Shown here: in pieces, positions 40,101 through 46,100 of the stretch
Layout: every line of letters begins with the position of its first letter
Position numbering within the stretch: the stretch's first letter is position 1
From: a virus
Taxonomy: Duplodnaviria > Heunggongvirae > Uroviricota > Caudoviricetes
Reading direction: 5' to 3' (one strand)
Virus record (IMG/VR): IMGVR_UViG_651053022_000007
Coordinates: 1-64,000 of that record
Length of the DNA: 64,000 nt
Position numbers: made by a program

Positions 40101-43100
40101 GCCACTATAAGTTCCCGCCCCTGTTACCGTATAACCAGCATCCAGCACTAGTTTTGTAACGTTACCGTTAAGGTCAGACACCTGAACAACCAGGTCGGAT
40201 TTTTTGAAAATACGGAAGGTATACGGAAATGATGTCGTAACGCCGTTACCTGTGTATTCGTTGTGGTCAACTTCGGTTGAGACCGTCATGTTAAATCTCC
40301 AGATAGTCGCAGCACCCGTTGCGCCGCATATCTGGTTATTCTATTACCCAAAAAACCATATATGGATAGAAAGACTGTGAATATGAATAGATATTACCTT
40401 TCAGGTAATTTGCAAAACGTGCTGGATAGCAAACAAATTATTTGCTACTGTATAAATATACAGTTATTGCATGGAGAAGATTAAGATGCAGCAGTATCAC
40501 TATCCACTGGAAGAGGGATTTACCGAAAGGATTCACACGCCGGGAGGCGTCAGGTCACTGGTGGAGGGATCGCACTTGATGAAATTACTCCGGGATCTCG
40601 ATAAGGATGGATTTAATGTCGATGGCCCACTTGCCGAACTGACTGCACTGATTAACTACGTCACCAGCTCACAGATGTCTATGCAGGATCTGCAAACACA
40701 TCTCGACTATTGTGCCGAACAATTACGAAAACAAACCAGATAAGGTTTGCAATCACCAAATGGAGTGCTTATATTTACCTTTGCGGTAAATTTACAACGC
40801 ACTCCTCTTGTGCCATAGTAATCGAGCACTGGCAAAATCCAGTGCCGGGATTGGCGTCCCGGATTACTAAAAGGCGCATTCACCGCGCAAGCGGTTTTTT
40901 TATGCGTATAGCACGGCCACATTCGTATTATGGTGGGCTGTGTGGGGGCACCGAAAGGTGCGCCGGGTCCTTTTAGCCGGTTACGCCAACCCTGCACAGT
41001 TCACCACCAACCGATTGGCGTCGGTAGTGGTGATTAACCAGACTAAAAGGTAACCACTATGACAGCTACAAAAAGCACGTCCATTTTTTCTTTCGAATCC
41101 CAAGCCGATATACGGGTAATCGTCATTAATGGTGAGCCATGGTTTATCGCTTCAGATGTTTGTCGGGCTATAGGCATAGCAAACCATCGAGATGCTGTTC
41201 GAAAACTTGATGATGATGAGAAGGGCGTCGCTTCAACCGACACCCCTGGCGGTGAGCAAGAATCGATCATCATCTCCGAGTCAGGCCTCTACACACTGAT
41301 CCTCCGCTGCCGCGACGCAGTGACACCAGGCACTATCCCCTACCGCTTTCGCAAATGGGTTACAGGTGATGTTCTTCCTCAGATCCGTCGCACCGGAAGT
41401 TACATTAAAAACTCGCTCCCGCAGGAAGAACGCATAAAGATGGTTGCCGACCAGGTAGCCAGCGCCACAGCATCAGCAGTGATGCAGGCAATGAAGGTAG
41501 AGAACAAAACCTACAGCGCCCCACTGAAGCCCGGCTACCGCAGCCTGATTCATTCGCCGTCTGGTGTTCTTGGCCTGACGGAGAACTCACTGCTGATGAA
41601 TCTGCTGAACCAGTTACAGGACGACGGGCATGACGTATCGGGCGCGGCGGCGGAGCTGACCACCATGTTCTGCTACATCGTCGGTGTGAGCAAATGCCTG
41701 CGTGATATCCAGACGCACGCGGAGTACATCAGCGACAAAGCAGGGTTCTTCTGACGGGCGGCGGCACAGGGATGTGCCTTTAAAATAATCATTGGCGATG
41801 TGATGTAGATTCGCGTAATATTACCTTAAAGGTAAAGGAGGCGCGATATGACAGCGTTGAAAAATCGTACTCAGCACAATGAACAAGCCAAGCAATGCTG
41901 GGATGTCATTGGAAAAGTTATGCTTGGTCGCGCAAGCAAAGAGCGCGACAAGGATATGGTTTACCAGACAGGAACATCTTTTAGCGACTTCAAGGCGGCA
42001 TTTCGCTCCAAATAGAAGCACATCAGGAGTTTTCCTTGAAGTTTAACATTAGAATATCTAATAGTTTTCTACATGGGGAAAGCAACACCCCTTTCGCTGT
42101 AGACGGACCTTTCCTTACTGATGATGAAATAAAAATCATACAAAGGTTTTTAGAGGATGTTGCCAATGGAAGGGCGCTTGTTGGAAAAAACAAGCCATCG
42201 TGGGTTGATGATAACCATGATAAAATTCCCGGCTCAGACAATTATGAGCAAGAGAATTATTGGCATTATCATTGTGGGCCAACATGGTATCCAAACACAT
42301 TTAAGAATTATACCATTAACTTAAATTTCAACCCTGGCGGAATGCATTCTAATGAATGCATTCATTATGCAAAAAATGATAATGAAATTGTCATTGTTGG
42401 ATTTTCAAGAGAACACATACCTTTCCTTTCATCAGATGGAAACAACAATCCGCTTTTTAATGATGAAGAAGAAGAATAAGCCCGCGCTGCGGGCTTTTTT
42501 GTGGACGAAACAAAAGTCAGTGCTACACTCATTGACGCCACATTGAGGTGGCTTATAGATGGAAATTTCACAATGAAAAAAGCATTTGCTGCACTGTTCG
42601 TTTTGTTGTCTCTGGTAGCTTCAACTCAGGCCTTTGCCGGTCGTTGTCAGCACGACAGCGATACTGCCGCTGACGGCTCCCGCTGCGGTGGGCGTTCTGC
42701 GGATTCCCGCCCGGGCGGCGGTGGCATTCGTTAAAAACAAGGCCGCGAAAGCGGCCTGTGACATGTCACGCTACATTGATATATGATTCATAAAGTAGCT
42801 TAAAGATTTACTTCCCAGAAAAGAAATTTCTTTTCCTGGATATGTCGCAATAATTGAGCATGACTTATCCCCGTTAGAGGTAACAAATCCTGAATAACCT
42901 ACTTGTTCTTTACCATTTTGTTGCTTGGCTAAAAAGTAGAGGTAGCTTATCTTTTTGCCCTCTGGGTAAAACTCTGCCAAACCAGTATCGGTGATTGAAT
43001 ATTTTATTCTCCCGCCTTGAGTAACGTTTTCCATCTCAAGTTTAGCTATGTCTTTTCTGTTGTATTCAGCATTGATTTTCCTTTCGAAATCAATGTTGTT

Positions 43101-46100
43101 TTCAAATGAGTAGGAAGCAACAGTCTGAATAGATGGGAACACGTTTATCTGGATGCCCCCACAGTCGGCACAGGTATAAAGGTATGAATCAGATGGAATC
43201 CCCATAAAAGAAAACTGAGTTACCTTAAATTTATCGCTATCTCCAAAGTATTGAAGTTCGCATTTAACATTTTGCCCTGCAAAAGAAAATGCAGACATCA
43301 ATATTGAAACAAAAAATATAATTGCCTTCATTATTATTTACCTAGCATGAACTGCGATGGTGGGATCAGAAAGTCGTTCCCCTGCTCACGCTCAACACGG
43401 CGCTGATAACGCTCAAGAGAGCCTGGGTCAAGGGCATCTTGTATCCGGTTCAATATTAAACCATTCATCGCCGTACGAAGCCAGAACACGTTGAGGAATG
43501 GCGTATTGTCAAGTGCCGTGCGATACCAGTCACCCAAATCTGCATCCCCTCTCGTGGTCTGCTGGAGCAGCGTGATAATGCTGTCAGCGTTCGATGCTGC
43601 TGGCCCCATTAGCGACGTAACCGGCCCGGCCCCCATGCGGTTGACCTCACCAAACATGAAGTCACCCAAGATGCCAAGACCGCCCCCCTGAGATGCGGCT
43701 GCGAGAAACGTCTTGGCATCTGCCGGGCGTGGTGTTTGCCCTTTCAGCATGAGTTTTGACTGCATGGAGATATAACCAAACATAGTCGCCCAGACAAAGA
43801 GGTTTGCAGCACCAAGGAAAGCCCCCTTCCCGTTACGTAGCAGCGCATTCGTCAGCGATCCGGTTTTCGACTCACCAAGCCCAGCAGGAATATAACCACG
43901 CCCGAATACTTCGCGTCCTAGTACGTTCTGCATGAAGCTTGCAGTGAACGATTTGTACTGACCAGCGAATCGTATTGCTTCCCCAGCCACCGTTCCTGGC
44001 ACCGTGCCCATCTTCATAAACGCCTGCGTGCGATCGCCAGGCTCTGACATGGCGATATTCAGACGGTCAAGGATGTAGCCGCGCAACTGCCCTTCCAATT
44101 GATCGCGTGCGTCAGCGATAGCGCGCTGCGTTGGTTTGATCCCCTTACTCTCTACATAACCGGCAATCACTTCGTCAGGCACGCCGCGGATGCCGCTGGT
44201 CGTCATGAACTTACGACCTTCGCTATCGGCCATGTCCATGTTGCGAAAAATTTCCCACTCACGTTCGCCAATACCGTGCAGATCCAGCACGCGTCGCAGG
44301 TCTTCCGGTAGCCGCGCATGAGACTGGTCAGCATTCTTTGCAAGCCAGTTGGTTATCATCATGGCGTTGCTGTTGCGACCGCTCTCGGTCCAGAAGTTCA
44401 TGAGGTTGTACTTAAAGAAAAGCTGCTGCGCGCGACCAAGCTTTCCATTCAGCGTGTCATCACCAGATATGCGCCGGATGATTTCCTGCGTCATGGAGTC
44501 GGAATAAACTCCGATAGAGGAAAGGATCTCTTTCTGCTCCGCGCTGTTGTAACGCGTGAAGCGGCCTCTCATAGCACCAAGCAACGCCTGCATAAAATTC
44601 TGCCCTTGGTAGCGCATCTCGGTAGCGGCGATAGGCACGTCGTTAAACGATGAGATTACCGCGCCACCAAGTTGGCTCATACGCAACCAGCCGCGTACAG
44701 CCGCCGACGCATTGGCCCAGCCTACGCTGCCAGGAATATTTAGCGAGCCGTCAACCTGCGGCATTACGGTACGGTTAATGCGACGCACCTTCGTCATGTA
44801 GTCAGCCAACGCTGCCGGTCTTCCGGATTTGCTGATATCTTCAGCAATGGCGTCCGTCAGGTACTTAAACATGTTCTGTGGGTTAGTGCCCAGTACGCGC
44901 ATCATGCCCGTTGTGCGGGCAGCGCTGTTTAAGCCACCAAACAGCGCTTCTCGCAGGCTGCCGGTGCCGAATTGCTGGTTGTACTCGTGCCACGAGATAC
45001 CATCTTTGAAGTGCAAAATTCGCTCTTGGCTGGCGCGTTTAGCTGCGTTCGCCGATCCCTTAAAGCCATTCATCCAATCGGGCTTTTCAGATGTAAGATG
45101 CACGCCGGAAGCCAGCCCGTTATAAATGTTACGCATGAACTGCTCGCGGTCAGCCACGCCGTCAAAAGTGCGCTCATCAAGGCGCGGGAGAATAGCATTT
45201 CGCCATGCTTCATAACCTGCGGCGCGGATCTTCATGATGTCGTGTGACTGGCGCACTATATAGCCCGGCTCTTTGCGTATCCATGCCCCGGCGCGGTTCT
45301 CATCAATGCGCGCAGTTTCCTGCCATTTCATGATGATTTGTGCAGCGCTTACGGATTGCTTTGTCATACCGTCAGTTGACTGCCCGCGCCCTATGCGCCA
45401 CATTGCATCGGCAATTTCCCGGTCATTGCTGCCGCTGGCGATGAATTGCACCAGCCCGGCACGGTCAAAATCGTAGTTGATACCGGAATGATACTTGCCG
45501 CGCAGTTGCGCCACCTCCGAAGATACCGACCGGCGGGCGCCGGTACGCGCATCGTTGCGGCCAACCAGCATTGCTTCAAGCCCGATATCCGGGCGGTCTT
45601 TCCAGATAGTACGAAGCTCTCTAAGTCGTTGTGCGGCAATACGGGCGTCGATTGCCTTATTGCGAGCCTCAATCTGTTTTGCCAGCATATCGGCATTGCT
45701 CAGTTCTTCCGCTGCGCGCATCGCGGCCTCTTCCAGAGACAGCGCCTCATTGGTCGCCAGAATTCGCCTAGTGGTGTCGTTCATGTCACGCACCAGCGAC
45801 TCCATCTCATCGGAAGAAAGCTCGCGACCAGCGGCAGCATTTACACTGCGCTCGCACTGCGTCAAAAATTCGTTTGCTGCCATCACATCCCCCGGTTAAT
45901 CATACAGGCGGCAAATGCCCGGAAAGCGTTGCTCATGCTATTGTCGCTGGCGTCGGCACGAATATCATTGAGTTTCTGGCGCAACGTGGTCGCAAGATCA
46001 GGGTTATCGACAGCGATATCGTCAAGCAGGGCGTTACTCAGGTTGAGCTCGTTATCAAGGTCTGCAGCGGCAGCGGTAATTTCATGATCTGCCTTTTGCG

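Follow-up and report, generated by a model that had tools for sequence, protein, structure and literature searches.

Our analysis of a 64,000-nucleotide stretch of viral DNA (IMG/VR record IMGVR_UViG_651053022_000007, positions 1 to 64,000; hereafter the window) centers on four open reading frames (ORFs), coding for proteins of 55, 147, 53 and 186 amino acids (aa), that lie between the antirepressor gene ant and the virion genes in the genome of an epsilon15/phiV10-like podovirus of the genus Uetakevirus. This interval consists of three unrelated accessory units in two recombination hot-spots of the Uetakevirus genome (Table 1). The first of these units, an operon formed by the 55-aa and 147-aa genes, has in our judgment an even chance of being a new RelE-fold toxin-antitoxin (TA)-like cassette whose promoter is controlled by the phage repressor. 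Fold, conservation, gene pairing, mobility, operator statistics and operon layout are the observations that carry this reading, and from them we infer RNase activity and toxicity of the 147-aa protein, neutralization by its partner and the timing of their expression. The 147-aa protein represents a RelE-fold family that is so far uncatalogued, and its minimal partner is likewise new; no mechanistic departure from known modules is demonstrated.

The structural evidence comes from an AlphaFold2 model of the 147-aa protein, built on a 31-sequence alignment, which reached a mean predicted local distance difference test (pLDDT) score of 90.3 and a predicted template modeling score of 0.85, with pLDDT values under 50 in the acidic tail (residues 144-147) only. 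The model is a compact alpha/beta domain with an N-terminal strand, two helices and a three- to four-stranded antiparallel sheet, its elements following one another in the order β 4-7, α 29-43, β 52-54, β 75-79, β 103-113 and β 117-124, with H127 after the last strand. When the model was compared with the PDB by Foldseek, the top matches were YafQ, RelE/RelK, YoeB and ParE, with template modeling scores of 0.45-0.65 on the target and a probability of up to 0.89; a second fold search had Txp40, Cami1 and a Cryptosporidium hypothetical protein as interspersed exceptions and RNase Sa, colicin E5, CdiA and colicin D at lower ranks. As far as a predicted structure can establish it, the RelE/ParE (BECR) toxin fold of the 147-aa protein is solid. 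The 36 close homologues of the 147-aa protein are spread over the Enterobacterales and Pasteurellaceae, and a search of 1.84 billion proteins gave only 119 representatives at 50% identity. The motifs GKNKPSW, YWHYHCG, IHY, IVGYSxxHxPF and NPxF are invariant in the 31-sequence alignment, and among 93 sequences reaching down to ~22% identity H77, H79 and H127 are invariant, with F11, G50, N52, K53, S55, Y78, Y111 and F130 nearly so. K51-N-K53 (a KxK motif) is on strand β 52-54 and W-H77-Y-H79 on strand β 75-79, such that the model appears to place these lysines and histidines where RelE (K52/K54), YafQ and YoeB hold their catalytic residues. ParE is itself among the top Foldseek matches, and a protein of this fold could act as a ParE-like gyrase poison and not as an RNase. 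We hold this to be decidedly improbable, as the RNase members RelE, YafQ, YoeB and HigB outscore ParE in both fold searches, and invariant histidine and lysine residues on the sheet are, by a comparison drawn from general knowledge, a trait of the RNase branch.

The 147-aa gene is accompanied by a small upstream gene in almost every locus that we retrieved. These 84 loci comprise a close branch of 46, defined by at least 50% identity between the 147-aa homologue and the window protein, and a distant branch of 38. In the close branch the ORF directly upstream holds the 55-aa domain in 46/46 loci (lengths 55-121 aa), and jackhmmer started from the 55-aa protein recovered those 46 partners, and no others, from the 5,125 ORFs of the fetched loci. 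The distant branch has an upstream partner of 160-194 aa in 34 of its 38 loci and one of 69 aa in L056 and L059; in L052 and L054 (~2986-3123) no upstream partner was identified and the toxin-like ORF is shortened to ~45 codons, a truncation that may reflect inactivation. A small gene abutting or overlapping the toxin gene from upstream, and matching no known antitoxin family, is thus present in 82 of the 84 loci. The 160-194-aa partners are missed by the jackhmmer search, and their link to the 55-aa protein consists of a hand-read motif and a profile comparison in which their last 35 residues match positions 20-53 of the 55-aa protein from end to end (VMLGRASKERDKDMVYQTGTSFSDFKAAF versus VVLSRLYRKSEDAGYTYKSSHSFDDFKKAV; hhalign P = 0.005, reversed control 0.44). 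Two remote family members are likewise preceded by an abutting 70-aa ORF with a comparable G-x-S-F-x-E-[LFM] motif. Across the partner family the C-terminal 30-35 residues are common and the N-terminal part is freely swapped (55 to 194 aa in total length), and no DNA-binding or antitoxin domain is recognizable in any of the partners. A conserved C-terminal peptide joined to a replaceable N-terminus fits a toxin-binding antitoxin module, of which the 55-aa protein would be the minimal version, and on this comparison of sequences the 55-aa protein would neutralize the 147-aa protein. The partner also diverges faster than the 147-aa protein (47% versus 60% identity to the Pectobacterium pair and 21% versus 51% to that of Klebsiella), and faster divergence of the antitoxin is the usual pattern in TA pairs. 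Both genes are under purifying selection, with ratios of nonsynonymous to synonymous divergence (dN/dS) of 0.13-0.16 (55-aa gene) and 0.06-0.09 (147-aa gene).

The pair travels as a unit. We found it in six contexts, namely the Uetakevirus ant slot in E. coli and Pectobacterium, a lambdoid nin region in Klebsiella, a myovirus in which it lies between the tape-measure and baseplate-spike genes, a Pasteurellaceae genome in which it follows a MuF polyvalent protein, and two further settings beside a type I restriction R subunit and beside an integrase. In every context examined the GC content of the toxin gene is below that of its surroundings. Judged by these gene neighborhoods, the 55/147 pair is a mobile cassette.

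The claim of the initial annotation that this operon is fronted by an operator proved well founded. The palindrome TTACCTTAAAGGTAA abuts the -10-like TAATAT of the putative promoter and is one copy of a TTACC-N5-GGTAA motif that, at no more than one mismatch, occurs 17 times in the window (11 copies perfect, six with one mismatch) against 1.07 expected, a count reached in 0 of 100 shuffles. The copies are at 14175, 26791, 26853, 28799, 29136, 29184, 29896, 29958, 35682, 40162, 40394, 40775, 41821, 42955, 59480, 62607 and 62625. Those at 29136/29184 and 29896/29958 flank the gene of a 194-aa HTH_3 protein (29254-29838), which is how an immunity repressor gene would be expected to lie between its right and left operators. 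The majority of copies stand directly 3' of a -10-like element, as in TTGACA-17-TAATTA followed at once by TTACC at 29958, and the same geometry is repeated at 40775, 41821 and 59480. Taken together, the copies look like a P1-style distributed operator network of the phage repressor. Upstream of the 55-aa ORF the order is promoter, operator, AGGAGG and ATG. The promoter was read from the sequence and its score of 8/12 is under the threshold of the scanner; relatives have TTGCAG-17-TACTAT at the same position. The operator is kept 5' of differing cassettes in TL-2011b, E. coli strain 4/0 and a Pectobacterium phage while the sequence around it diverges, indicating that it is a property of the backbone slot and not of the cassette. 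Since the promoter overlaps the operator, the pair is predicted to be shut off in the lysogen and expressed upon infection or induction, provided that the repressor binds these sites as their arrangement suggests. A terminator scan of the interval from ant to the 55-aa gene found none, and read-through from the ant promoter is therefore also possible.

The operon adjoins an immunity region of a familiar design. Further operator copies precede a 90-aa gene (40394) and the c4/ant unit (40775-40789), and between an operator copy and ant (40813-41011) lie an isrK-like RNA (an Hfq-binding small RNA), a C4 antisense RNA and its a1/b1 target (Rfam c4-a1b1, 40813-40865; 43.1 bits, just under gathering). 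As read from the sequence, this is the immunity-I layout of P1/P7 type, with C4 and its targets 5' of ant and an operator at 40775, in a podovirus. The vB_EcoP_ZX5 paper verified the repressor and anti-repressor and did not define the operators, and we found no description of the operators of epsilon15/phiV10-type phages in PMC9782041. Two other operator-fronted segments were observed. The product of the 90-aa ORF corresponds to the antirepressor C-terminal domain as a free-standing copy (39% identity over 82 residues, E = 7e-17; both match PHROG 450), and it could compete with Ant or modulate it. At 59458-60448, between the portal and terminase genes, a rightward operator-overlapping promoter (TTGACA...TAATTA immediately followed by TTACCTTTCAGGTAA) precedes a tRNA-Arg(UCU) gene (59817-59893) and a 118-aa ORF.

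If the pair is a TA-like cassette, it would operate as follows. The 147-aa endoribonuclease would cut RNA and thereby arrest translation; the 55-aa protein, equivalent to the C-terminal module of the longer partners and devoid of a DNA-binding domain of its own, would neutralize it; and transcriptional control would be supplied by the repressor operator of the host phage. The two proteins would be absent from the lysogen and produced on infection or induction along with the adjacent c4/ant immunity-I region. Candidate pay-offs include host translation shut-off, interference with competing phages and a trigger-type abortive function.

Several observations weigh against this reading. Foldseek E-values for the 147-aa model against the PDB are all at least 0.1 and nothing significant was found among the BFVD viral structures, confining the toxin assignment to the level of fold. 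Pfam gave zero matches for 93 members of the family, and the family profile found nothing relevant among PDB sequences, its sole match, to a repeat cytochrome, being spurious. That K51/K53, H77/H79 and H127 correspond to catalytic positions is read from the order of secondary-structure elements and not from a residue-level superposition. The proteins also carry the wrong charges, the 147-aa protein being acidic (isoelectric point (pI) 4.84, net charge -12) and its partner basic (pI 9.8), the reverse of canonical RelBE. An acidic protein is awkward for binding to the ribosomal A site, and the window protein does not present a basic docking surface for it. Charge is not a conserved property of the family, which has a median pI of 6.8 and in which 30/93 members have a pI above 8. 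The GC content at third codon positions (GC3) differs between the two genes of the operon (0.49 for the 55-aa gene, 0.30 for the 147-aa gene), a promoter under a repressor operator is atypical of TA modules, which are normally expressed in the carrier cell, and an hhalign comparison of the 147-aa family with the YafO-like family of toxins was not significant. Relative to locus L031, synonymous divergence differs sharply between the two genes (0.51 in the 55-aa gene, 2.9 in the 147-aa gene); with GC3, this contrast hints at recombination within the cassette or at different constraints on its two genes.

The acidity, the absence of a sequence link to known toxins, the lytic-phase operator control and the codon difference between the genes keep the ParE-like reading and two further alternatives alive. 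In one, the 147-aa protein is built on a RelE-like scaffold but is not toxic, and serves the early programme of the phage itself as a RegB-like RNase or RNA-binding factor; once derepressed, it would process or inactivate particular mRNAs, with the 55-aa protein as cofactor or specificity subunit. T4 RegB has ~150 aa and a RelE/YoeB-like fold. The overlap of promoter and operator predicts the lytic-phase expression that such a factor would need, other phages carry the pair within lytic-phase operons (the nin region and the tail operon), and the invariant histidines suggest catalysis; we nonetheless consider this alternative unlikely, if worth keeping in view. In the other, polarity is reversed, so that the basic 55-aa protein is the toxin and the acidic 147-aa protein the antitoxin, in a HicA/HicB-like arrangement. 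The inverted charges would be accounted for, and hicAB has similar sizes and gene order, its toxin gene being followed by that of a larger acidic neutralizer. This is nevertheless improbable, as it is the 147-aa protein that has three invariant, enzyme-like histidines on a toxin fold, the swappable N-terminus and common C-terminus of the partner fit a binding peptide and not an enzyme, the partner evolves faster, and there is no Pfam match to HicA or HicB. Returning to the TA-like cassette, a bolder version of it holds that the phage has placed a RelE-fold endoribonuclease and its inhibitor under its own immunity repressor as a lytic-phase weapon or switch, and not as an addiction or defense module of the lysogen. 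The pair might then shut off host translation, interfere with phages that are co-resident or co-infecting, or act as a dead-man's trigger at repressor inactivation; acidic variants would act on a target other than the ribosomal A site, and the slot would be a general exchange point for YafO-type toxins, the 147-aa family and a 210-aa protein without family assignment. We regard this version as distinctly unlikely.

Comparison with characterized systems sets the pair apart from each of them. The 147-aa protein is ~60 residues longer than RelE, YafQ, YoeB and HigB, with two insertions and the tail, has no detectable sequence or profile similarity to RelE/ParE toxins, and is acidic where those are basic. 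The partner has no recognizable DNA-binding domain, and the promoter bears the operator of the phage repressor in place of an antitoxin-specific one. A parallel in position is the YafO pair of TL-2011b, which sits in exactly this slot, is fronted by the same operator and likewise consists of a small ORF followed by a toxin gene. By eye, an HxH strand motif and a later invariant histidine are common to the 147-aa family and YafO (PF13957). However, the 147-aa family has no Pfam match to YafO and the 59-aa partner in TL-2011b is unrelated to the 55-aa protein. An assignment to YafO was tried and rejected: BLASTP was not significant, and hhalign against the TL-2011b YafO-like family gave E = 0.03 with a probability of 1.6% over 49 columns, or E ~0.5 with a probability below 2% under other settings. 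As the resemblance (HxH / TS..hhY / H) is visual only, we have not filed the 147-aa protein as YafO. The PaaR2-PaaA2-ParE2 system of an E. coli O157:H7 prophage has a very small antitoxin without a DNA-binding domain and a separate regulator. It shares with the present pair a prophage-borne RelE/ParE-fold toxin, a tiny antitoxin and outside transcriptional control, but there is no sequence relationship, ParE2 is only a mid-ranking structural match, and the putative regulator here is the general phage repressor acting through a genome-wide operator. The upstream order of operator (40775), isrK-like and C4 RNAs and ant is that of P1 immunity-I, with the 55/147 operon following ant behind its own operator; the phage here is of the epsilon15 type, and we know of no RelE-fold pair downstream of ant in P1. 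A literature search with the four RefSeq accessions found nothing, and a general search on phage RelE/YafO found nothing specific.

The three units of the interval are exchanged independently. The nearest phage records are HEMP4, phiv142-3, TL-2011b, vB_EcoP_ZX5 and phiV10, and related sequence is present in ~535 of 5,426 complete E. coli genomes. When positions 41700-43400 were used as a megablast query, the match ended at 42770-42773 in every phage record and complete E. coli genome, with a best coverage of 63%, and the exact four-gene combination is absent from all of these complete genomes and from the phage records searched. Many genomes have the 55/147 pair and lack the 186-aa gene, the converse is also seen, and the 186-aa, 53-aa and 850-aa genes are found together in 56 genomes. 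Two exchange slots can be recognized. Slot A, from ant to the 53-aa gene, holds the 55/147 pair in ECSC054, phiv142-3 and HEMP4, a 210-aa protein without a family match in E. coli strain 4/0 (L003, 3143-3775), and in TL-2011b (L002, 3203-3902) a 59-aa ORF overlapping the gene for a 181-aa protein that scores 26.3 bits with Pfam YafO_toxin (cut-off 25). Judging by these occupants, small toxin-like cassettes seem to be exchanged at the operator-controlled slot A. Slot B follows the 850-aa gene and is occupied by the 186-aa protein, by a 94-118-aa protein with three predicted transmembrane segments, or by an Arc/Ant pair. The three-segment protein (L001, 4069-4425; L004, 5067-5363; L010, 4460-4744) is common to E. 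coli and Pectobacterium phages, and its replacement of the 186-aa gene in relatives makes these two alternative occupants of slot B both envelope proteins. Between the slots the 53-aa gene is invariant, its product (WP_000708858.1) being identical in ECSC054 and strain 4/0 despite different flanking cassettes.

These results revise the initial annotation in several respects. Its four ORFs are all present where it placed them, with the single correction that the smaller signal-peptide-bearing product has 53 and not 54 residues. The strong terminator that it drew at the end of the operon exists as described in Table 1, and the signal peptides that it assigned to the 53-aa and 186-aa proteins are plausibly of the Sec type when read by eye (n, h and c regions with an AxA cleavage site). 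Its description of the genes as cargo agrees with the finding that they are accessory genes of a variable region, in which relatives have other genes at the same two slots. That the proteins have no recognizable domains is correct for sequence libraries, as Pfam, NCBIfam and PADLOC gave zero matches for any of the four and PHROGs assigned them to families of unknown function plus one named 'membrane associated protein' (for the 53-aa peptide), and ceases to be so once structure is used and the RelE-like fold of the 147-aa protein appears. PADLOC-DB searched at E up to 1 gave no match of the four proteins to an anti-phage defense component. All four ORFs are annotated in RefSeq and homologues are known from other genera. 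The AT-richness that it reported holds, by our composition check, for the 147-aa gene (35.1% GC, GC3 0.30) and the 186-aa gene (35.7% GC, GC3 0.34) and does not hold for the 55-aa gene (45.8%) and the 53-aa gene (58%), flanking genes having 53-58%. All arginine codons of the 147-aa and 186-aa genes are AGA or AGG; in the tailspike gene the share of AGA/AGG among arginine codons is 45%.

Where the initial annotation turned to function, it offered a toxin/immunity pair, superinfection exclusion and anti-defense as candidates. The first is the best reading for the 55/147 pair, in view of the RelE/ParE fold, the small upstream partner and the analogy to the YafO occupant of the slot, and does not extend to the other two genes. 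A superinfection-exclusion role for the pair, or one as a classical moron expressed in the lysogen, is opposed by the operator, which would imply repression in the lysogen; superinfection exclusion is a candidate role only for the envelope-targeted 53-aa and 186-aa proteins. That the four genes form one system, or that the 147-aa protein is an anti-defense DNA mimic by virtue of its acidic tail, could draw on the adjacency of the genes, the similarly low GC of the 147-aa and 186-aa genes and the net negative charge of the 147-aa protein. Both versions are highly improbable. The units assort independently and the 186-aa gene goes with the late operon, which speaks against a single undescribed four-gene system. 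The acidic run is confined to 4-6 disordered, non-conserved C-terminal residues that are missing from many homologues, and the protein has a RelE-like fold and not the elongated mimic surface of anti-restriction proteins such as Ocr and ArdA.

Table 1. Positions in the window of the genes, RNAs and control elements of the interval and its surroundings.
Feature	Position	Strand	Remarks
Tailspike gene	37827-40289	-	
90-aa ORF	40471-40743	+	
isrK-like RNA	40826-40901	+	Rfam 77.9 bits (gathering 50)
C4 antisense RNA	40926-41011	+	Rfam 77.7 bits (gathering score 45)
Antirepressor gene ant	41059-41754	+	Bro-N domain
Unit 1, 55/147 operon from promoter to terminator	41792-42503	+	
Putative sigma-70 promoter of the 55/147 operon	41792-41821	+	-35 TTGGCG (41792-41797), 18-nt spacer, -10 TAATAT (41816-41821)
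Operator palindrome	41821-41835		One copy of the phage-wide TTACC-N5-GGTAA motif, putative repressor operator
55-aa ORF, putative minimal antitoxin/neutralizer	41848-42015	+	Basic, pI 9.8; PHROG 8607, function unknown
147-aa ORF, RelE/ParE-fold putative endoribonuclease toxin	42036-42479	+	TTG start; AGGAG Shine-Dalgarno sequence at 42024-42028; protein end ...NDEEEE
Intrinsic terminator closing the 55/147 operon	42478-42496 (whole element 42478-42503)	both	8-bp stem, 6 G-C pairs; T-run on +
53-aa ORF, predicted secreted peptide	42573-42734	+	PHROG 14503, 'membrane associated protein'
Late-operon (virion) intrinsic terminator, close 3' of the 186-aa gene	42740-42757	-	7-bp stem, 6 G-C pairs, T-run
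186-aa ORF, predicted exported protein	42771-43331	-	Four invariant Cys; PHROG 11983, function unknown
850-aa virion protein gene, followed by more late genes	43334-45886	-	PHROG 684

The other two units code for predicted envelope-targeted products. The 53-aa peptide begins with MKKAFAALFVLLSLVASTQAFA, cleavage being placed before the following G, and would leave a mature part of 31 aa with two cysteines after removal of its Sec-type signal peptide. A promoter-like TTGACG-16-TATAGA, read from the sequence and without an operator, lies 5' of its gene, which is a conserved backbone gene and may be expressed in lysogens. The 186-aa protein begins with MKAIIFFVSILMSAFSFA, cleavage being placed before GQN. 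Its gene was described as convergent in the initial annotation, which is right as to orientation and incomplete as to membership, as the gene is part of the late operon rather than of the cluster on the ant side. In all loci examined, those of Hafnia and Klebsiella included, it begins 2 nt past the stop codon of the 848-850-aa virion gene, and this spacing, together with its position upstream of the terminator at 42740-42757, makes it the last gene of the late operon. In the Klebsiella locus the tailspike gene follows directly and there is no ant region. The family has 15 homologues with 66-92% identity, all from Enterobacterales, in which C24, C54, C57 and C158 are invariant, consistent with periplasmic disulfides; the protein is probably a disulfide-containing periplasmic protein that acts on the envelope. 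An AlphaFold2 model (pLDDT 39) was unusable, and tblastn against 50,697 phage records gave no match. In P22, the superinfection exclusion gene sieA lies beside the ejection-protein genes. The likeness of the 186-aa gene to it is positional only, both being envelope-targeted accessory genes right after internal-virion or ejection genes. No homology to SieA was detected, the 186-aa product has the look of a periplasmic protein that is soluble once its signal peptide is cleaved whereas SieA is an inner-membrane protein, and the gene sits inside the late transcript with no promoter of its own identified. An assignment as SieA was rejected on finding no match to a SieA family in Pfam, PHROGs or NCBIfam and, by eye, no hydrophobic segment other than the signal peptide.

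The remainder of the window is composite. Positions 1-13000 are F-like conjugative-plasmid DNA and not phage, with a TraI relaxase/helicase gene (994-5826) and its AS-traI antisense RNA, genes for a ParB-like protein and PsiA, a sok RNA (10627-10798) and a DDE transposase gene (11845-12963); an autotransporter gene (16399-18048) follows the plasmid part. To the left of the Uetakevirus genes, 19558-26800 has features of a second, lambdoid-like element, including a tRNA-Val gene (19558), a CI/LexA-type repressor gene with HTH_3 and Peptidase_S24 domains (23141-23914) and a DicF RNA (25062-25113). The Uetakevirus integrase gene (34383-35639) has an internal position, with early and lysis genes around it, in agreement with the map of the free phage.

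Should the 147-aa protein prove to be an active toxin, it would define a RelE-fold family outside Pfam, NCBIfam and PADLOC, comprising ~119 clusters at 50% identity, and with it a new type of minimal antitoxin module. Annotation pipelines for TA and defense systems now miss this family in hundreds of E. coli prophages. The 17-copy operator, found before the ant region, the cassette and the tRNA-Arg gene, provides a testable P1-like map for epsilon15/phiV10-type phages. This map predicts that cargo in the slot is switched on with the lytic programme, which bears on the purpose of the TA modules that phages carry.

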